Below are positions 2,765 to 12,443 of a stretch of 32,000 bases of DNA, piece by piece. The notes under the pieces were generated by a model. The model did no database searches. It was not told the origin of the DNA and saw only the letters and a list, made by a program, of their open reading frames with translations. The position numbers and the translations under genes were made by a program. Location of the stretch: contig SHMX01000001.1 in the NCBI GenBank assembly GCA_008080745.1, positions 570,001-602,000 on the forward strand. The letters are read 5' to 3'. The stretch comes from Candidatus Thorarchaeota archaeon (GTDB lineage Archaea > Asgardarchaeota > Thorarchaeia > Thorarchaeales > Thorarchaeaceae). The stretch's first letter is position 1. The number at the start of each line of letters is the position of its first letter.

Positions 2765-4147
2765 ATGAGTCGGATTCTTAGAAGGCAATTCAAGGTTTGT
2801 CTCTTAGGGAATGGCTTTGTCGGCAAGACAAGTATACGCCGAGAATATTTGAAAGAAGGATTCAAGAGAAGCTATATTCCTACTCTGGGGGTTGACTTCG
2901 CTCAGAAGCAGACGGAATACAAGGACATACCTACAACACTCGTTATTTGGGATATTGCAGGCCAAGAGGCATACAAAAGACTGCGACGTCAGTACTATCA
3001 AGGTTGTTCTGGAATGGTTCTAGTATACTCTGTGGTAGATAGACAGTCATTCGATGATGCAACCAAATGGCTTGTAGAAGCACACGGATTCATAGAAAAA
3101 TTCCCACCATTGATTATTGCCGCAAACAAGATAGATCTTCGTCCAACACATCTAATAGAGGAAACAGTTACCACCAAAGAGGGTCTGGAGTTTACCGAGA
3201 GGTTCAGAGAGAGATTAGGAACGCCTGTTATCTTTTTGGAAACATCCGCCTTGGAAAATATCAATATAGATGAGGCTTTTGAAGCGCTTACCAAAATGAT
3301 GGTAGGAGATGAAGCATTTGAGGAGATTGAATTAGAATATTCTACTAGACCAAAAGCATCAACATCCGAGGTAGAACCCAAAGTTTCAGAATTGCAAGAG
3401 TCTTTGAGAGAGGAACCATCTACTGCAGAAGCAGATACACAACAAGCTGAAACAGTGGATAGAACAGAGAGCATCGTGGCAGATCGAACTGCCGATTCTG
3501 AAGTCAAAGTTGAAACCAATGAAGAACCTACTGGCAAAGTAGCTGTTTCAAGCTCGGAAGCAACAGAAACCAGTAGCAGGGAATCTGTTACTGAGAGGTT
3601 CACACCAAGTTCAGAACAAGAGGAATCAACAGCAAAGGTTTTCAAATCTGGGGTAGAGGTTCAGAAGGAATCTGTTGATGAAGATATAGAAGAAGTAGAA
3701 AAACCAGCAAGAGAGATTGTAGAAATACCCTACACAGAAGATGGCGATTTAGAACCTATTACATCCTTACCTGCAGGGTCTCAATATCTAAAGGAAGAAG
3801 AAATTGGCAAAGCAATGGCAAAGCTAGTTGAACTTCGAAAGAAATTGAAGGAAAAAGAAGATGAACTAGCTAACATTCTCTCAGAGGCAGAAAAGAAGCT
3901 TCTCACGCTAAAGAACACTGTACATGTCAAGAAGCTAATGTATGATCATCTGCAAGAACAACTTGAACAAACCCGAAAAGAATGGGCGGATGCATACGAC
4001 GAATACGTAGAGGTTGATACTGCCAAGAAGAAAGCGGTCTCTAAGAAACTCGAACAGATGAAAGATATTCGGGACCATATTGAGGAAGTCGGAAGAGGAA
4101 TCCGGAAGCGAGTCAGTAAGCTGGATCTCAAGAATATGGCCGAATGA
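2765..4147 (+). CDS. Rab/Ras-like small GTPase with acidic linker and C-terminal coiled coil
   Basis: G1 GNGFVGKT, G2 YIPTLGVDF, G3 WDIAGQE, G4 NKID, G5 ETSAL; E/S/T-rich linker (aa ~180-340); heptad-patterned C-terminus. GAGGAG RBS upstream. Confidence 0.92.
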   Translation: MSRILRRQFKVCLLGNGFVGKTSIRREYLKEGFKRSYIPTLGVDFAQKQTEYKDIPTTLVIWDIAGQEAYKRLRRQYYQGCSGMVLVYSVVDRQSFDDATKWLVEAHGFIEKFPPLIIAANKIDLRPTHLIEETVTTKEGLEFTERFRERLGTPVIFLETSALENINIDEAFEALTKMMVGDEAFEEIELEYSTRPKASTSEVEPKVSELQESLREEPSTAEADTQQAETVDRTESIVADRTADSEVKVETNEEPTGKVAVSSSEATETSSRESVTERFTPSSEQEESTAKVFKSGVEVQKESVDEDIEEVEKPAREIVEIPYTEDGDLEPITSLPAGSQYLKEEEIGKAMAKLVELRKKLKEKEDELANILSEAEKKLLTLKNTVHVKKLMYDHLQEQLEQTRKEWADAYDEYVEVDTAKKKAVSKKLEQMKDIRDHIEEVGRGIRKRVSKLDLKNMAE

Positions 4148-4320
4148 AAAATCCAACGATAGTAAAACTATCAATATTTCATCAAGTTCGAATCTAATTG
4201 AAGAGGACAATATGGAGCTCTAGTATCATTGAGAATACGAAAGGTTTATTTGGATTCGAGAAATGAATTAGATAGACTTTATTGTTTTATGCATAGAGTC
4301 AAAATATATAGAGTGTTAAA

Positions 4321-5022
4321 GTGATGGAAAGAAAGAAACTAGTAATGCTTGGTTCACTTCTGATGGTTTTCATGCTACTAGGAAGTTTATCTACAGTGGT
4401 GGCATTTGACCTAGATCCAGGTGATGGCGGTACAGAATATACTAAAGCAGATGTTACTGTTAAATTCCAGAAACTCAGATGTGTTGAAGACACAGATTGG
4501 AATTCTGGAGCAGATGTTTGGATGAGAATCGATGGTCCTATTGACTATTACACATATTATGCGCAACTTGATATGATATATGGATTTGAGGGCGTGATTG
4601 ATGGTGCGACGGGTTACCCTGAAACCGAGTTAAAATCATCATTATGGAATGGATACGGAGCTGGTGGATATTTCGAGGTCACCTATCAGAATGTCAATCT
4701 GAATAACGATTTTGTTTTGAGATTGAGAGTTCGAGATGATGATGGGTGGTTTAATGATGAGCTTGTTGAATGCAGACTGACCGTCAAGTCACATGCATCT
4801 GTTGAAAGCAGCCGCTCATACAACAATATATTTGCACACTGTGCAGGTCAATATGACGCATATTTTGGTACGAATTACTACACCTATGGTTATGAAGACA
4901 GCTACATCAATTATGAATGGATTGATGGAGCAGGGTTCTGGTTTGGCGGTATATCGGATGACTATCGATCATACACTTCAAACGGTCTGTACATTGATGT
5001 GTGTCTAAACTATCATTTATGA
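4321..5022 (+). CDS. Secreted beta-rich protein, putative C2-like Ca2+-binding domain
   Basis: Signal peptide (MMERKK + hydrophobic + VVA|F); acidic loops EDTDWNSGADVWMRI and RVRDDDGWFNDELV; Tyr/Gly/Asp-rich. Confidence 0.7.
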   Translation: MMERKKLVMLGSLLMVFMLLGSLSTVVAFDLDPGDGGTEYTKADVTVKFQKLRCVEDTDWNSGADVWMRIDGPIDYYTYYAQLDMIYGFEGVIDGATGYPETELKSSLWNGYGAGGYFEVTYQNVNLNNDFVLRLRVRDDDGWFNDELVECRLTVKSHASVESSRSYNNIFAHCAGQYDAYFGTNYYTYGYEDSYINYEWIDGAGFWFGGISDDYRSYTSNGLYIDVCLNYHL

Positions 5023-5035
5023 ATACAGAGATAAT

Positions 5036-5061
5036 GGTTCTGTGAAATCAGTCACAGAATC
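5036..5061 (+). terminator. Hairpin with U-rich tail between convergent genes
   Basis: TTCTGTGA-aatcag-TCACAGAA perfect 8-bp inverted repeat (5038-5059), followed by tctctcttctctttttt. Confidence 0.6.
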
Positions 5062-5116
5062 TCTCTTCTCTTTTTTGCAATTCACTCTTTTCTCGACCAG
5101 ATAGATGACCAAATAT

Positions 5117-5536
5117 TTACTCGCCAATGATTTTTATTAGAACACGTTTGGGTCTCCGGCCATCAAACTCACCATAGAATATACGCTCCCAGGTGCCGAG
5201 GTCAAGACGTCCCTTTGTAATGGCTACAACGACTTCCCGACCCATAATTTGTCGTTTCAGATGAGCATCTCCATTATCCTCACCTGTGCGATTATGATGG
5301 TATTGGCTGGTGGGCTCATGAGGTGCTAATTCTTCTAACCAACGTTTGTAATCTTCGTGAAGGCCGCTCTCATTATCATTGATGAAAACACTAGATGTGA
5401 TATGCATGGAATTGACTAGACAAAGTCCCTCTTGAACGCCGCTCTCAGAAACAGCCTCCTGTACCTGAGGTGTGATGTGAATGAGGTCCATCCGTTTTGG
5501 AACAGTAAATGTCAGATATTTTGTGTGACTCTTCAT
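5117..5536 (-). CDS. yjbQ: YjbQ/UPF0047 family protein (secondary thiamine-phosphate synthase)
   Basis: [53 protein letters not shown]. Confidence 0.93.
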
Positions 5537-5628: not shown

Positions 5629-6444
5629 ATGCATGAAAGGGTAAAGAAGGGAGCTAAATTGACAACGATTACAGTTCATGGTTTCAAAGGTGGAACTGGA
5701 AAGTCCCTCATTGCTATAGCTCTAGGATATTTACTAAGCAAACAGGGAAAGAAGGTTCTTCTTATCGATGGAGATTATTTTGCACCTTGTTTTGATGCCT
5801 TCTTCCCTCAGAATGACGATGTGAATCCCTTTACAGAATATCTGGAGGAGAAATCGAAATTCGAAGAAGTTGTTGCTGAAACTAGATTTCCAAATCTATG
5901 GGTGAGCTATGCACCCACTCCGAGTTTCACACAAAAGATTCTTCAAGCAGATACCAAAACGCACGGAGGGTTTCTCAAGAGAATATATGCAGGAATCAAA
6001 ATAGCTCGTGATGATTTAGGATTTGACCACATTGTTATTGACAACTCAAGCGGAATCTCTCTCGCTGCAATCAATTTCCTAACTTGTAGCAATCAATCTC
6101 TATTGGTAATTCGGCCGGTCCGATATGGAGTTGAATCAACCTACAATCTCATCAGTGCAATATACAGAAAACTCAGGTACGCCGACTCAAAATCCGTACG
6201 CCGTGACTTCCTAGTCTGGAATCAAGTACCCACTGATGAGGAATCCATAATCAATCCGGATATTGAGAGATATTTGAACCATTGGACCGATAAATTCTCT
6301 GAGGCAGGGATTCAGCTGGGGTCTAGAATACCCTATATTTCCGAAGTGGTTACATCCATGATTGTGGATAGTACACTAGATATAGAGAAAATAAGCAAGC
6401 CAATATCTAACTATATGGGAAACCTAATCAAGTTACTTGGATAG
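5629..6444 (+). CDS. MinD/ParA-family P-loop ATPase
   Basis: Deviant Walker A GFKGGTGKS, LIDGD, Walker B IVIDNSSG. Start may be TTG at 5659 (GGAG RBS). Confidence 0.88.
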   Translation: MHERVKKGAKLTTITVHGFKGGTGKSLIAIALGYLLSKQGKKVLLIDGDYFAPCFDAFFPQNDDVNPFTEYLEEKSKFEEVVAETRFPNLWVSYAPTPSFTQKILQADTKTHGGFLKRIYAGIKIARDDLGFDHIVIDNSSGISLAAINFLTCSNQSLLVIRPVRYGVESTYNLISAIYRKLRYADSKSVRRDFLVWNQVPTDEESIINPDIERYLNHWTDKFSEAGIQLGSRIPYISEVVTSMIVDSTLDIEKISKPISNYMGNLIKLLG

Positions 6445-6459
6445 ATTCGGCGCGATAAT

Positions 6460-7131
6460 TTACTGTGTCCATGGAAAATAATAATCCTCATCGACAGTCT
6501 GTTCTTTTCTAATCAATATTCTGCGAAGTAGATACTTAATTGCAGAATCAAGCTTCGGTTCAATATTCTTTTTTGGAACATCATTCCATGGCTCTTCACC
6601 TTGTTCTTTCAATCCTTTGACAAATTCAAGAAGTTCGAGCTTGCTTATACCTTTATCAGAGTTTTTGACAATTGTCTGTGCAATTGGGACAATGTAATCA
6701 GGAAGATCCATTAGAACAGGTAGGTCTTCTAATCCCTCATCACGGTTTGTCACCGAGTAGAATTTTGCATTGTATGGTTTAAGGCCAATCTCTGTACCTC
6801 GGAGCCAGAAGATTAGAGATGCCTCTTCGAGTTTTGAGAGGTGGTCATAAATCGTTGGCAGCTCTACTCCACGTAGCCTAGCTAGGTCTTTTGCAACTAC
6901 ACCATGTTCATGTTCTTTCTCATATTTCTTAATTGTATCAAGAGTGCCCATCAAAACTTTTGAGAAAATGAGTGGATTCCCACTATCAAAGCTGGTCTTT
7001 GGACCCAGTGCTCTCTCAAGGGATGCAATTCGTTCATCAAAACTTGATAGAGTCTTGTTGATAGATTTCAGTTCTTTCTGAATTTTCTCTAGAACCGGAC
7101 CCAATGCGAGGTCTTTCTCAACAGGACTCAT
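6460..7131 (-). CDS. Coiled-coil + winged-helix DNA-binding protein
   Basis: N-terminal heptads (LEKIQKELKSINKTLSSFDERIASLE); HTH VVAKDLARLRGVELPTIYDHLSKLEEASLI; second wHTH-like C-terminal segment. Confidence 0.7.
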   Translation of the reverse strand: MSPVEKDLALGPVLEKIQKELKSINKTLSSFDERIASLERALGPKTSFDSGNPLIFSKVLMGTLDTIKKYEKEHEHGVVAKDLARLRGVELPTIYDHLSKLEEASLIFWLRGTEIGLKPYNAKFYSVTNRDEGLEDLPVLMDLPDYIVPIAQTIVKNSDKGISKLELLEFVKGLKEQGEEPWNDVPKKNIEPKLDSAIKYLLRRILIRKEQTVDEDYYFPWTQ

Positions 7132-7184
7132 CTATGCACACCTAGAAGATAGTATTTCATGCATAATATGATAAAGTCTTACCT

Positions 7185-10100
7185 TTAAGTGCTATCCTCA
7201 TGGCCTTCCATCTCGGATTGTACCATGTCAAGATAATCTAGGGCAGTTTCTAAGTCCTCTCCTTTATTGGTAGAGAGAGGGTTAAATCGTTTGAGAAGTC
7301 CTTTTGTATGCAAAGCTGCCAGGACAGCGACAATACCCATACCGAAGCCAGCAATTCCTAGAAAGAGTAGCCAGGGAGGGATTAGGCCCGGCACTTCACG
7401 TACAGTAATTGAGATGACAGTTGATAAATGATTATCATACTGATCGTATATTGTTATATTGATAATATAGGTGTCAGGAAGTAAGTTTCCTTTAGTGGTG
7501 AGTAGACCAGTATCACTGATAGCAAAATGATCAGAATCGTTCACCATCCAGAGCTTGATTGGTGATAGATCCGTAACATAGAGTTGATATGAAAGGCTTT
7601 CATCAGCGAAAATAAACTGATTCTCGGGAATTTCTACCCATTCAGGACCTGTACGATCCATAACGGATATAGAAAATGTTGTACTAAGTTGGTTTCCATG
7701 AATATCACTAACCATCACAGTTAGAATATAATCACCAACTGGAAGAACTACATTATTTGATAGAACTCCTGAGCCGTCAATATCAAAAAGAGAAGATCCT
7801 TCAATAGACCAAGATGAGAGGGGAGATAGATCGATTGCCTTCAAGTTCATCAAGAAAGAAGTTCCCAGTTCGATAACTTGGTCTTGTGGAACCTCCACCC
7901 ATGAGGGTGAAATTGTATCTTCCACTAGAACATGCAATTCGGTAGTATTCCAATTTCCTTCAGAATCATCAACCCGAATCTCCAGATTATAAAGCCCAAC
8001 TGGAATCTTGCTTTGATTTGTCAGTTTTCCTGTCCCATCAATATGAAAATACGAATCGTTCACTGACCATTCCAGAGGTGTAGAAAGGTCAAATGCACTA
8101 AATTGAAGAATTAGATGCGACCCGAATTCAGACTCAAATTCTGATGGAGCTTGAATCCAACTAGGAACTGTATTATCGGTTACAGATACCCAAATTGTCG
8201 CATTCAGCTCCCGACCCCAGGTATCGTTCAAGAATACAATAATCCAGTATCTTCCTACAGAGAGAGGCGTGTTGTTTTGAAGACTACCATCTTCTGTAAC
8301 TACAAATTTTGAGTCATTTACCCACCACATATCAATTTCTTGAAGGACCTCGGCAAGTAGGGCATAGGACAATGCCTCACCGAGTTCGATATCTTGATTT
8401 TGGGGTTCCTGTATCCATTCTGGAGCTGTAGTATCATAAACGTGTATCAGAAACACCTCAGAGAGGTTATTGTTATGTGTATCATTAACCGTAACTAGAA
8501 TCCAATACAAACCTGTATCGAGCCACGTCTTATTTTGAATCTCACCAGTACTGGTTATGAAAAAGTTAGCTGTGTCATTCACTGTCCAAGTATGAATCCC
8601 CGAGGGATCAGTGGCATTAAGATCATAATAAAAATGATAACCATATTCTCCAGGCTGCTCTGATGGAGATTCAATCCACTCTGGTGGAAGGGTATCGCTA
8701 ACAGATATTGAAAATGAAAACGAAATATCGTTATCGTATGTATCATTAACTGTTACTTCTAACCAATATACTCCAACATCAACTACAGTGTTATTGAATA
8801 TGACACCTGAATTAGTGATGTCAAAGTAGGAGGTGTCATTTAGAATCCATTTATCTAGACCAGACGGGTCACTACAATTGAAACCATAGAGAAAATCTGT
8901 AGCATACTCGTAATCCAGATTACCCAGAGGAGAAATCCAATGTGGAGCGGTGGTATCTTGAATTATTACTTGGAATGTAGTGTTGATTGTTCGTCCATAG
9001 CTATCATTTACAAAGATCCGAAGATTGTATGTCGATATGGGTATAGTAGTTGAATTAGTTAGAAATCCTGTATTGTTGACTTGGAAATAAGTATCATTGT
9101 CTAACCACCAGAGAAAGACACCAGATGGAACAGTAGCATTCAATTGATATTGGAATGAATCAAGATATTCAAAAATCTGTGTGGAGGGGTCTTGATCCCA
9201 GGAGGGGGCAGGTTCAGGATAAGCCCAAACACAGAAGGTGGAATTACTGCTAAAAATAGTAAAGACATTCCAAGTATCATCACCATCAGCACTTGATACA
9301 TTGTATCCTAATCTACCTTCATCATTCAGAATGAAGGTGGTGTCATTTATGTGAATGGTACCAGAATATACTTGGAATCCATGATACTCCCAGAAATAGT
9401 ATTCTGCCCGGATTACTATTCCTGAGGCATTGGCCCCAGGAAGAATTACCTGTTCAGTAGGCGGAGAGATATAGCAATTCAGTTCTTCCCAATACATTGT
9501 TAGAGAGAATTCATTCATATTTATTTCTGAGATTCCGTGTGCATCAGGGGTGATTTGAGATATGATGTTGTATGTGATATTCTTCAACTCATTAGGTGTA
9601 TGCGATGCCCTCCACAAATCATCGATTTGTTTCTCTAAACTCAAATCATTCAGGAGATAAGACCCATCCACCACATTGGAGTTATCATATTCATATCTTA
9701 AGCGTACATGCATAATTCCAGTATGGGAGCTATCTATGATGAAAGCAGGAGTTGAAAGAGAGGTGCAATTGATTCGGTCTGATATGTATGTCTTTGTAGA
9801 TGTGGAAATTAACCGATTCACTCCTTCTACTCTGGCCTCAAAGGAATAGGTGTCAATTCCTACTTCATCATCAGCAACAACATCTACAGAGAAAAAACCA
9901 GTTGAATCATCATATTGTAGAACTGTCCAAGGGCTGGTAGATACATTTGCACATTCTACAATAATAGTGGTGATTTCTGTGAGAGGATGATAGTTTTCAA
10001 ACCCGTAGTAATGTAGTGTTCCATTTGCAATAATAGTTCCGTCAATGGAGCCGCGATCAAAGGTTCCAACACCATCGAAGAGACCCCAATTTCCTGATAG

Positions 10101-11552
10101 GGCTAGCCTGTTTTCTGATGACCAATTTGTTTCATACCAGTATGGAGAATCCAAACCAGCTTCATCTTCGTCCACAACAAGCAGCTTATAATCCGCATTG
10201 GTAATACGAGGACAATCCATATCTAGAGTGTAGTTAAAGTCGAGAAAGATATTGATTCCTGATTTACTGACTGAAGAGGTTGTAATGTCAAATTTGACAT
10301 AATGAGGGTTATGCGTGACTTGGAATGAATCATTACTCTCATTGTACAAAAAACGGAAATATTCTGTTGATCTACCATCATCATACACACTCAGTTCAAC
10401 ATAATCCAAATTAGAATAGCCATCAGGATCACTTACGTTCAATGATGTAACCACATAGTTATACTCTGAAAGAATTGTATCACTATCTACAAGACCCTCA
10501 GTGATAGGGGTTCCATTGGTCTGTGGGTCCGAGTTTGTCAATCGAAGGTACATGCGGTCTATTGCCCAGGTTGATGAAATTGCATCGTTAGACCTCGATT
10601 CATCACGAATCATAACATAACAATCAGGACCTGTAAGCCAATCATGAATATTCACCACAAAATCGGTATTTCCTGCTATATTGTCCACAATAAGATGATC
10701 AGGGCTTGTATCACCAGACTCGAACCAGAACTCCAATGTTTCTGAGGAACTCACCGAGTTAAAGTCTACAACAAGTTCTTCTGTTGCATAAGAGTCAAAA
10801 TCAATACCTGAAAAATTATAGATTGCCTCAAAACGGTAGCGGGTATATGTATCACGCTGCTCAATTTTCCAATTGTCAGCATCAAAGGACATACTATCAG
10901 CATCATTCCAATAATAGATTTGAACGTGAAAATCCGTTCTTTTATATTGAGCATCTGTTGATGTGACCGTGCGAGCAGACTTTGAACCCTCCGTTAACGT
11001 TGTCATTACATCATAATTAGACCCATCCCAAAATTGGATATAGACATACGAGTTTATATCCCATGAACCACCAAAGTCAATGCTGAACCGTATCTCTTCA
11101 GAACCAGAGGTATCTACTTGGGTACAGCGTAAATACCCAGTCATGAACCCACTAACGTCTTCATGGAACTCAGAGTCATAATAATCAATATGATCATCAG
11201 TCCATCCAGTAGGTTTCGAGCTAAATGTTGTCTGTTCCAAAAGAGTGCTCCACTGCGATGCAGTGTAGGATGCCTCAGCTAGGCTGGTTCTTGAGTCAAC
11301 CGTTTCGTTATTGTCTAATGCCATTCCATTTGGGGGACCATTAGTATGAGTACCATAAACCTCATCATAGATACCATCCACATAATAATCACCAGCAGAA
11401 GACAGAACGGGTACGACTTCTGTTTCTAACGTGTTTGGTGTTGGGGTAATTTGCATATCCGTATTGGAACTTGTAAATATTGGAATTATCAGTAATATAA
11501 CATAAGTCACTAACAGGATACTAAAACTTCTTTCAGCGTGCATCAAAGCCAA
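7185..11552 (-). CDS. Large membrane-anchored cell-surface glycoprotein with tandem Ig/cadherin/HYR-like repeats
   Basis: Signal peptide, beta-rich D/S/T/Y-rich ectodomain with many N-x-S/T sequons, 7 repeats, one C-terminal TM (WLLFLGIAGFGMGIVAVLAAL) and an acidic tail. Alternative ATG start at 11543. Confidence 0.88.
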   Translation of the reverse strand: MALMHAERSFSILLVTYVILLIIPIFTSSNTDMQITPTPNTLETEVVPVLSSAGDYYVDGIYDEVYGTHTNGPPNGMALDNNETVDSRTSLAEASYTASQWSTLLEQTTFSSKPTGWTDDHIDYYDSEFHEDVSGFMTGYLRCTQVDTSGSEEIRFSIDFGGSWDINSYVYIQFWDGSNYDVMTTLTEGSKSARTVTSTDAQYKRTDFHVQIYYWNDADSMSFDADNWKIEQRDTYTRYRFEAIYNFSGIDFDSYATEELVVDFNSVSSSETLEFWFESGDTSPDHLIVDNIAGNTDFVVNIHDWLTGPDCYVMIRDESRSNDAISSTWAIDRMYLRLTNSDPQTNGTPITEGLVDSDTILSEYNYVVTSLNVSDPDGYSNLDYVELSVYDDGRSTEYFRFLYNESNDSFQVTHNPHYVKFDITTSSVSKSGINIFLDFNYTLDMDCPRITNADYKLLVVDEDEAGLDSPYWYETNWSSENRLALSGNWGLFDGVGTFDRGSIDGTIIANGTLHYYGFENYHPLTEITTIIVECANVSTSPWTVLQYDDSTGFFSVDVVADDEVGIDTYSFEARVEGVNRLISTSTKTYISDRINCTSLSTPAFIIDSSHTGIMHVRLRYEYDNSNVVDGSYLLNDLSLEKQIDDLWRASHTPNELKNITYNIISQITPDAHGISEINMNEFSLTMYWEELNCYISPPTEQVILPGANASGIVIRAEYYFWEYHGFQVYSGTIHINDTTFILNDEGRLGYNVSSADGDDTWNVFTIFSSNSTFCVWAYPEPAPSWDQDPSTQIFEYLDSFQYQLNATVPSGVFLWWLDNDTYFQVNNTGFLTNSTTIPISTYNLRIFVNDSYGRTINTTFQVIIQDTTAPHWISPLGNLDYEYATDFLYGFNCSDPSGLDKWILNDTSYFDITNSGVIFNNTVVDVGVYWLEVTVNDTYDNDISFSFSISVSDTLPPEWIESPSEQPGEYGYHFYYDLNATDPSGIHTWTVNDTANFFITSTGEIQNKTWLDTGLYWILVTVNDTHNNNLSEVFLIHVYDTTAPEWIQEPQNQDIELGEALSYALLAEVLQEIDMWWVNDSKFVVTEDGSLQNNTPLSVGRYWIIVFLNDTWGRELNATIWVSVTDNTVPSWIQAPSEFESEFGSHLILQFSAFDLSTPLEWSVNDSYFHIDGTGKLTNQSKIPVGLYNLEIRVDDSEGNWNTTELHVLVEDTISPSWVEVPQDQVIELGTSFLMNLKAIDLSPLSSWSIEGSSLFDIDGSGVLSNNVVLPVGDYILTVMVSDIHGNQLSTTFSISVMDRTGPEWVEIPENQFIFADESLSYQLYVTDLSPIKLWMVNDSDHFAISDTGLLTTKGNLLPDTYIINITIYDQYDNHLSTVISITVREVPGLIPPWLLFLGIAGFGMGIVAVLAALHTKGLLKRFNPLSTNKGEDLETALDYLDMVQSEMEGHEDST
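7398..9215 (-). repeat. Seven tandem ~86-87-aa protein repeats
   Basis: Units begin EPAPSW, DTTAPHW, DTLPPEW, DTTAPEW, DNTVPSW, DTISPSW, DRTGPEW. Consensus D..xPxW..xP..Q..ExG..F.Y...A.D.S....W..ND...F.I...G.L.N...L.VG.Y.L.V.V.D..GN.L...F.I.V. 1818 nt = 606 aa. Confidence 0.92.
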
Positions 11553-11592
11553 GCGTCCTTCTGAGATTTATCTCTAGAGATTGGTCCTAATA

Positions 11593-11608
11593 TTTCGAAA
11601 TTTCGAAA
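11593..11608. promoter_or_regulatory. Candidate operator: perfect 16-bp palindrome in divergent promoter region
   Basis: TTTCGAAATTTCGAAA, two tandem copies of the palindrome TTTCGAAA, between the surface-protein and M23 gene starts. Confidence 0.4.
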
Positions 11609-11717
11609 CACATAGCGAACTTATAGGGACCATTCTTAAAGTTTGTCAATGAAAAAGTATATCCTTGGACAGAAAGAAGGTTTATCATGCAGTTTTATTA
11701 TTCCTCAAATGGTCTGT

Positions 11718-12443
11718 ATGAATAGCAAGAAAAAGGCACTATTGGTGCTACCACTGATTGTTATTGTTTCGATTATAGGGTATAGCTATTACAATATGAG
11801 TACTAGTAATTCGAGTCCACCAACACTTGAATTTCCAATAGCAGAACCTGAAAAGATAGAACGACTAAGTGCATATCACACACCAGACTGGGGAGAACCA
11901 GGAGTCTATCACAATGGGATAGATCTGATTACTACAGATAATGTAACCATCATATCACCAACAACTGGAACAGTGGTTGGGAAGACTGAACATCTCAATA
12001 CGTATGGAGGGAACATGCTGTTCACCATCTCTATCGAGTATAATTGGGCATGGCATGTTGACTTGGTGTTAGAGCCAGATTTCTACGATGATGCAAATAA
12101 CTCACTTCAGACCAGTATGATTGAGGTTGAGGTCGGGCAAACAGTAGAAACAGGTGATGAGATAGGAATCTTGCTTTACAATGGTCCATCATATTATTCA
12201 CATCTTCATTATATGTTGAGAGTTCAAGGTGCAGATGTATGTGCGTACAACTATTCTTCATCTGCTGCACAGACCATCTTTGAAAATATTGCAGAGGACT
12301 CGGACACCAGAATTCTGTATCCCTACGAAGAACCGGAGATTGCCACCGAACAGAATATTCTTGCAAATCCAATGATTATCATTCCAAGTTTCGCAGGAGG
12401 AGTGTATGCAATTATCATCCTTGTGGTGATTCGTCGAAAATAA
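11718..12443 (+). CDS. M23/LytM-family metallopeptidase-like protein with N- and C-terminal membrane segments
   Basis: HxxxD (YHNGIDL) followed by TIISPTTGTVV, and HxH (SHLHY). ATG 11718 (MNSKKKALLVLPLIVIV) is preferred over the track start at 11643. C-terminal TM ends in RRK. Confidence 0.8.
   Translation: MNSKKKALLVLPLIVIVSIIGYSYYNMSTSNSSPPTLEFPIAEPEKIERLSAYHTPDWGEPGVYHNGIDLITTDNVTIISPTTGTVVGKTEHLNTYGGNMLFTISIEYNWAWHVDLVLEPDFYDDANNSLQTSMIEVEVGQTVETGDEIGILLYNGPSYYSHLHYMLRVQGADVCAYNYSSSAAQTIFENIAEDSDTRILYPYEEPEIATEQNILANPMIIIPSFAGGVYAIIILVVIRRK

Follow-up and report, generated by a model that had tools for sequence, protein, structure and literature searches.

A variant M23 metallopeptidase gene and a giant surface-protein cassette as probably independent neighbours in a Thorarchaeota genome

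The window analysed here is a stretch of 32,000 nucleotides from a Candidatus Thorarchaeota genome (G000:C1:570001-602000; the G000 assembly comprises 3.16 Mb in 19 contigs and is 98% complete), in which a gene for a giant repeat-bearing surface protein and a gene for a membrane-anchored M23 (LytM-type) metallopeptidase are transcribed divergently. An earlier note on this DNA had read the pair as a co-regulated module, in which the giant protein, as an adhesin, grips bacteria or wall debris and the peptidase hydrolyses peptidoglycan at the archaeal surface. The two genes and the spacer between them are confirmed; the reading as an adhesin-lysin module is largely refuted by synteny. The explanation that we favour, and consider probable, is that two independent units were put side by side by the gain or loss of ~6.2 kb in a variable interval. 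One unit would be a patchy accessory gene with its own proximal promoter, encoding a membrane-tethered ecto-metallopeptidase of a divergent M23 subfamily. The other would be a cassette for an N-glycosylation-rich, beta-sandwich giant surface protein, a small helix-turn-helix (HTH) protein and a ParA/MinD-like ATPase. This explanation starts from what can be read directly, namely the gene structures, the peptidase fold, motif conservation, the indel, the conservation of the cassette and the patchy distribution of the peptidase.

Sister locus, cassette and spacer

The features concerned are the following, in window coordinates (TM, transmembrane; HMM, hidden Markov model; AF2, AlphaFold2).

5117..5536, minus strand: YjbQ/UPF0047 gene (Pfam PF01894), the left anchor of the variable interval
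5629..6444, plus strand: 271-aa ParA/MinD-type P-loop ATPase (Pfam AAA_31/CbiA; NCBIfam KGGVGR-type and archaeal MinD-like; all below cut-offs)
6460..7131, minus strand: 223-aa HTH protein with weak HTH_20/TrmB/ArsR-type matches
7185..11543, minus strand: giant type-I surface protein of 1452 aa, with a signal peptide, a ~740-aa all-beta head, seven repeats, a TM helix and an acidic tail
7383..9218, minus strand: seven tandem repeats of 87-92 aa, residues 779-1390 of P0001 (iterated HMM)
11593..11608, no strand: perfect 16-nt palindrome TTTCGAAATTTCGAAA, centred ~57 nt upstream of the giant-gene ATG
11672..11689, plus strand: M23-proximal conserved block GAAAGAAGGTTTATCATG with a TATA-like TTTATCA, 29-46 nt before the ATG
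11718..12443, plus strand: variant M23 (LytM-type) metallopeptidase of 241 aa (Pfam PF01551, orthologue starts, AF2 model, Foldseek)

The giant open reading frame (ORF) extends over 7185-11552 on the minus strand and is likely to start at ATG 11543 (MHAERS...), just ahead of a hydrophobic signal sequence, and this methionine is also the first residue in the Atlas record of the protein. The M23 ORF spans 11643-12443 on the plus strand, and the starts of orthologues place its true start at ATG 11718 (MNSKKK..., 241 aa). The spacer between the two genes measures 174 bp (11544-11717), or 166 bp when counted from the TTG. The arrangement described in the earlier note, divergent transcription from a region of ~165 bp with a perfect palindrome, is therefore borne out by a 174-bp spacer that contains the 16-nt palindrome.

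Gene order in the same-genus sister genome, G001, follows that of the window between 987 and 20108, with protein identities of 67-95%. In G001, just 89 bp separate the M23 gene from yjbQ/UPF0047, and the collinear locus has no counterpart of 5629-11552, the part that holds the ParA-like, HTH and giant genes, which defines an indel of ~6.2 kb. DNA homology between the two genomes ends at two start codons, 5537 and 11718. Inspection of the 6.2-kb segment for signs of a mobile element returned no direct or inverted repeats at the junctions, tRNA, integrase-like ORF or GC shift.

Orthologues of all three cassette genes occur at locus L048 (5133-11338) of another Thorarchaeote, where the giant protein (P0103) is 40% identical, the HTH protein 61% and the ParA-like ATPase 63%. 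Gene order and strands agree with those of the window, but the genomic context is unrelated, and neither an M23 gene nor yjbQ is present within 6 kb. Because all three genes are kept there without the peptidase, the conserved unit, judged by gene order, is the giant-HTH-ParA-like cassette and not the giant gene with M23. For G001, G005, G020 and G016, a search with this giant protein as the query placed its homologues on contigs other than that of the M23 gene; for G014 and G011 it retrieved none. Among the 86 family genomes searched, the pairing occurs in this genome alone, an outcome that the earlier note had itself named as counting against its reading.

A gentler alignment of the regions upstream of the M23 genes placed block GAAAGAAGGTTTATCATG of G000 and its G001 equivalent, GAACGAAGATTTATCACG, at equal distance from the M23 ATG, and revealed no counterpart of the palindrome region upstream of the G001 gene. 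Since the block with its TTTATCA is kept in G001, the peptidase very likely has its own promoter; the palindrome belongs to the side of the giant gene. Co-regulation of the pair, a condition set in the earlier note, is mostly not supported: the sister M23 gene stands without giant gene or palindrome, and the partners kept by the giant gene are the HTH and ParA-like genes. A search for sequencing runs listed two, both of DNA from one marine-sediment study, probably the source, and none of RNA.

The chance of a 16-nt palindrome in a given spacer of ~165 bp is, by our estimate, ~0.2-0.5%, with ~10 expected genome-wide. When at most one mismatch was allowed, two sites were found in G000. The second (C3:387533-387548, equivalent to L051:1501-1516; TTTCGAAATATCGAAA) is only 5 nt past the stop codon of a 3040-aa ORF, and an 1849-aa ORF with a signal peptide starts ~190 nt downstream of it. 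Across the family, the same tolerance gave seven sites in 5 of 41 genomes, against none for the reversed control; the other sites are few, intergenic and in mixed contexts. From its position, it is plausible that the palindrome is a regulator site for giant surface-protein genes. Most simply, it would bind the regulator of the giant gene, possibly the HTH protein of the cassette, and the ParA-like ATPase may regulate or position the surface protein. A role as a conserved operator was considered and rejected, as L048 and L049 do not keep the palindrome in front of their orthologous giant genes; at the aligned position, L048 has a different dyad, TGCATC-N8-GATGCA, which is suggestive only. If regulation or positioning of large surface proteins is indeed the business of the cassette, these three genes would provide a handle on how it is achieved in these archaea.

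The giant surface protein

The giant protein is real, with 1452 residues, and is secreted and membrane-anchored. An HMM iterated on the protein itself recovered each of the seven repeats with E values of 1e-36 to 1e-40; a single TM helix and an acidic tail of ~40 residues complete the protein on their C-terminal side. The protein contains 40 N-x-S/T sequons, compared with 18.2 +/- 3.9 in shuffled sequences, and is strongly acidic (214 D/E vs 55 K/R). No significant Pfam or NCBIfam family was assigned to it. The repeats had been called cadherin/HYR-like in the earlier note: their number stands, but the label has no profile support, as the Pfam scan returned no cadherin, HYR or He_PIG match even at E<=1. 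A feature-based language-model lead from Atlas relates the repeats to He_PIG/Big_9/cadherin/HYR clusters (score 0.93; all ten of the top ten clusters in one clan), and relatives of the head bear HYR or Big_13 domains in their stalks; cadherin/HYR identity is not demonstrated.

The ~740-residue head was modelled with AF2 from ten sequences, yielding an all-beta structure with a predicted local distance difference test (pLDDT) value of 80. The model resembles beta-sandwich chains, among them the ectodomains of RPTPmu and Eph receptors, complement C3 and a Nitrosopumilus surface-layer (S-layer) protein, and no enzymatic domain is visible in it. Only nine relatives of the head were retrieved from 5.8 billion proteins, and those with a named source all derive from Thorarchaeota. 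Given the signal peptide, repeats, TM helix, sequons, acidity and predicted beta-sandwich head, large surface glycoprotein, adhesin- or S-layer-like, is a fair description. With archaeal S-layer-type glycoproteins and He_PIG/Big_9/cadherin-like repeat adhesins, the protein shares a signal peptide, a chain of beta-sandwiches, an excess of sequons, acidity and a C-terminal membrane anchor, and the Nitrosopumilus match extends the likeness to S-layer proteins in structure. It differs from both groups in that it matches no significant Pfam family, that its head occurs in just nine proteins and that a cytoplasmic tail of ~40 residues replaces a sortase-type signal.

The peptidase and its subfamily

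The peptidase consists of an N-terminal TM helix, an ectodomain (residues ~35-205) and a C-terminal TM helix ending in RRK. The Pfam profile Peptidase_M23 (PF01551) is matched in two stretches with 41.1 bits against a cut-off of 28.7 (E 2.1e-10), and this gene is the only copy above that cut-off in a scan of the whole genome. An AF2 model computed with 36 sequences (pLDDT 91.9) shows TM-like helices at 3-29 and 218-239 on either side of a beta-rich domain. Foldseek matched this model to at least 50 M23/LytM structures at probability 1.0, with E values down to 1e-7; ShyA, Csd3, LytM and lysostaphin stand at the top, and LasA and EnvC are also included. The motifs named in the earlier note, HxxxD (H65-N-G-I-D69) and HxH (H162-L-H164), are both invariant among 36 aligned family members, as are W58, E119, P120 and Q131. 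In a profile alignment to the M23 enzyme 9gy1, whose structure is solved, HxxxD and HxH fall on their counterparts; the alignment covers just these two motif regions of the peptidase.

Canonical M23 enzymes carry a catalytic histidine in a Y-x-H-L segment between the two motifs (His260 of LytM). No histidine is invariant between HxxxD and HxH in the 36 family members; His113 of the peptidase is replaced by Q, E, T, S, N or K across the family. The invariant Glu119-Pro120 closes strand 112-119 and is succeeded by a family-specific helix (125-133). From strand order, we infer that Glu119 corresponds to the canonical middle histidine. A distant paralogue in the genome (paralogue B, 27% identical) keeps the glutamate, as do bacterial members and those of the Loki, Hel and Heimdall types, and two multidomain proteins chosen as canonical M23 comparators proved to be glutamate variants as well. 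In the multidomain relatives P0177 (770-932) and P0150 (510-674), H-I-D replaces H-x-H and the glutamate is kept, which may be a further variation of the active site.

The variable middle histidine, together with Foldseek matches to the degenerate LytM domains of EnvC, DipM and SpoIIQ, would suit a non-catalytic LytM-type factor (EnvC-, NlpD- or SpoIIQ-like) that acts as a membrane scaffold or activator. Degenerate LytM factors typically lose metal ligands, whereas here the Zn ligands H65, D69 and H164 as well as H162 are invariant, and Glu119-Pro120 persists as far out as paralogue B and the bacterial members, so that we regard a non-catalytic role as very unlikely. Our committed guess is an active Zn peptidase in which Glu119 would serve as the general base.

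The positive charges at the N-terminus (MNSKKK) and C-terminus (RRK), combined with the two terminal helices, predict that the ectodomain is anchored in the membrane on either side. The TM and signal features and the peptidase model place both gene products outside the cytoplasm. Pfam and NCBIfam scans of the peptidase reported the M23 domain only, with no wall-binding domain (LysM, SH3, PG_binding); outside the M23 domain, the protein comprises the two TM helices and a family-specific C-terminal extension. It shares the fold, the HxxxD and HxH motifs and the extracytoplasmic location with bacterial M23/LytM endopeptidases such as ShyA, Csd3, LytM and lysostaphin, but differs from them in having Glu-Pro instead of the conserved middle histidine, a helical insert of ~13 residues after the Glu-Pro strand, a conserved C-terminal helical extension with a Cys-containing motif, and a TM helix at each end in place of any LysM, SH3 or PG-binding domain. 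The host, moreover, is not known to have murein. The peptidase would act on exogenous peptides no more than a few nanometres away from the membrane of the archaeon. As its substrate, peptides from bacterial walls are a tentative choice, somewhat short of an even chance; the surface proteins of the archaeon itself are possible but less likely, and some other substrate or function takes what remains.

With the family profile, a search of 1.84 billion proteins yielded no more than 806 representatives at E<=1e-3, of which 48 reached E<=1e-30; this sets the subfamily sharply apart from mainstream M23 proteins. By these profile searches, the peptidase belongs to a distinct M23 subfamily of Asgard archaea and some bacteria of the Planctomycetota-Verrucomicrobiota-Chlamydiota (PVC) group. 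On the bacterial side, it includes a protein of 868 aa with PKD from Kiritimatiellia as well as JGI proteins that bear the label TIGR03067 family, and several family members are labelled 'M23 family metallopeptidase' by NCBI. In the survey of species genomes, 18 of the 86 family genomes carried the peptidase, with 9 of the 16 genera represented. Such patchiness, together with tandem duplicates of the gene in G005 and L042, points to an accessory role and away from one in the core envelope.

Archaea have been reported to encode modular peptidoglycan hydrolases, and M23 + PG_binding_1 proteins of Halobacteriales kill bacteria (PLoS Biol 2025, PMC12352652); the general idea of archaeal M23 enzymes directed against bacteria is therefore not new. 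Asgard archaea are not named in the main text of that study, whose search was confined to proteins with a wall-binding domain (PMC12352652). Like the 'Woldo' protein described there, the present peptidase is an archaeal M23-domain protein, and its patchy, accessory-like distribution resembles that of weaponised hydrolases; the hydrolases of that study, in contrast, combine a catalytic with a wall-binding domain and are secreted (PMC12352652), whereas the protein from the window has no binding domain and is predicted to be membrane-tethered. As judged from the alignments, the new part is the glutamate-variant, doubly anchored M23 subfamily of Asgard archaea and PVC bacteria, which merits attention given the use that other archaea make of M23 enzymes against bacteria.

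The G011 orthologue (L038:8217-8630, G011:C40) is broken by in-frame stops, of which the first search showed one TAG and two TAA. Probably a pseudogene, it adjoins an 866-aa gene of the penicillin-amidase family. At L046:5996-8615, on a contig whose protein copy is labelled Heimdallarchaeota by NCBI, a short variant M23 gene without the C-terminal TM helix begins 10 bp after a 664-aa GH3 gene, with which it probably forms an operon. A NagZ-like muropeptide link for this GH3 protein was rejected, as it is of the beta-glucosidase/xylosidase type and matches the NagZ model with an E value of just 2e-4.

Neighbourhoods of M23 genes and competing explanations

For the survey of M23 neighbourhoods, a giant neighbour was scored as an ORF of at least 900 aa within two genes of the M23 gene; 18 loci were considered, three of them on contigs too short to score. 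A giant neighbour was present at 6 of the 15 scorable loci (G000, G005, G020, G016, G093 and G047) and absent from nine (G001, G014, G011, G055, G063, G045, G081, G071 and G059). A first sample, taken via long contigs and therefore biased, had given giants at 7 of 12 loci, against 6 of 15 in this species-representative survey. An all-against-all comparison of 22 loci found no universal M23 neighbour, and the largest shared class was repeat-bearing giants, at seven loci. The neighbours outside the window are diverse.

G005: 1761 aa, Big_13/PKD/HYR
G020: 934 aa and 915 aa, NosD beta-helix
G016: >2139 aa, TSP3 repeats
L040: 1892 aa, NosD-type, between M23 and yjbQ/Ras, which are the anchor genes of the window in rearranged form
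L042: 3401 aa, S8 and Big_7
L043 and L044: several cadherin-like proteins

Relative to the giant gene, M23 genes were co-directional in three cases, convergent in three and divergent in one; such mixed orientations are not the pattern of an operon. We read this as a modest leaning of M23 genes towards variable surface-protein neighbourhoods, restricted to some lineages. It would suit either a hot spot of gene turnover or a loose functional link, but does not amount to a module.

Three observations weigh against full independence of the two units. The adjacency of 6 in 15 exceeds a background of 10.6%, which is the fraction of genes within two genes of such an ORF in G000 only; a binomial test gives P = 0.003, and P = 0.06 for a background of 20%, but treats related genomes as independent samples, which they are not. 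Paralogue B (G000 C7:28932-29576; 214 aa, with HNGID, NFEPW and HIH motifs) follows, at a distance of 95 bp and on the same strand, a gene for an 865-aa Ig-like surface protein, and has a ParA-like gene beside it. Finally, two other giant ORFs flank the near-copy of the palindrome at C3:387533. Together, the three observations allow for a loose functional link between this peptidase family and large surface proteins. At the paralogue B locus (C7:27862-32268, part of which is covered by L020), the ParA-like gene encodes 353 aa and is accompanied by a gene for a 317-aa membrane protein; the arrangement is kept in G001 (L019), and copies of 50-59% identity, some of them in tandem, occur in other genera.

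Such a link would be closest if the peptidase trimmed, released or matured giant surface glycoproteins of the archaeon's own envelope and were encoded beside them for that reason. Besides the raised adjacency and the context of paralogue B, retained in the sister genome, this would account for neighbours drawn from five unrelated families (the giant of the window; Big_13/PKD/HYR with or without S8; NosD beta-helix; TSP3; cadherin-like), and membrane tethering would suit membrane-proximal substrates. We nevertheless consider it rather unlikely: nine of the 15 M23 loci have no giant neighbour, orientations are inconsistent, and the peptidase is limited to 18 of 86 genomes though giant surface proteins occur in nearly all. 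Moreover, the background in other genomes may exceed that of G000.

Had it held, the module of the earlier note would have given the closest lineage to eukaryotes a remarkable means of contact between archaeon and bacterium. It draws on the extracytoplasmic location of both proteins, the intact M23 fold and Zn ligands, the existence of bacteria-killing M23 hydrolases in Halobacteriales (PMC12352652) and the recurrence of giant secreted proteins near M23 genes in some Thorarchaeota. Set against this are the restriction of the pairing to one genome in 86, with a sister M23 gene that has neither giant gene nor palindrome next to it, the travelling of the giant gene with its HTH and ParA-like partners, and the genomes of genus g6 that carry the M23 gene, none of which has a giant neighbour. 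In addition, neither protein has a wall-binding domain (LysM, SH3 or PG_binding) in the Pfam scan, and the peptidase would be tethered at both ends near its own membrane. We therefore judge the module highly improbable, and as the pairing arises from a local indel, it should not be carried forward as such. Only slightly better placed, and still quite unlikely, is the broader proposal that the Asgard glutamate-variant M23 proteins are contact-dependent hydrolases of bacterial wall peptides, deployed with lineage-specific giant adhesins from a variable slot; were it true, relatives of the eukaryotic ancestor could feed on, antagonise or remodel bacterial partners. With two independent units brought together by an indel as the preferred explanation, the remaining interest rests on the variant M23 subfamily and the three-gene cassette.

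A Ras/Rab-like GTPase gene occupies 2765-4147 of the window, and a 233-aa ORF without a Pfam match (4321-5022) lies between it and yjbQ; this ORF has no counterpart in G001, which represents a second, small indel. The yjbQ gene is found within ~5-6 kb of the M23 gene in L040, L045 and G011. The interval between the two consists of 89 bp in G001, an AsnC gene and the 1892-aa NosD-type gene in L040, small genes only in L045, and a penicillin amidase gene in G011. Across genera, M23, yjbQ and the Ras/Rab-like GTPase gene occur within ~8 kb of each other in shuffled order and orientation (window 2765-5536; L040:15185-16765).

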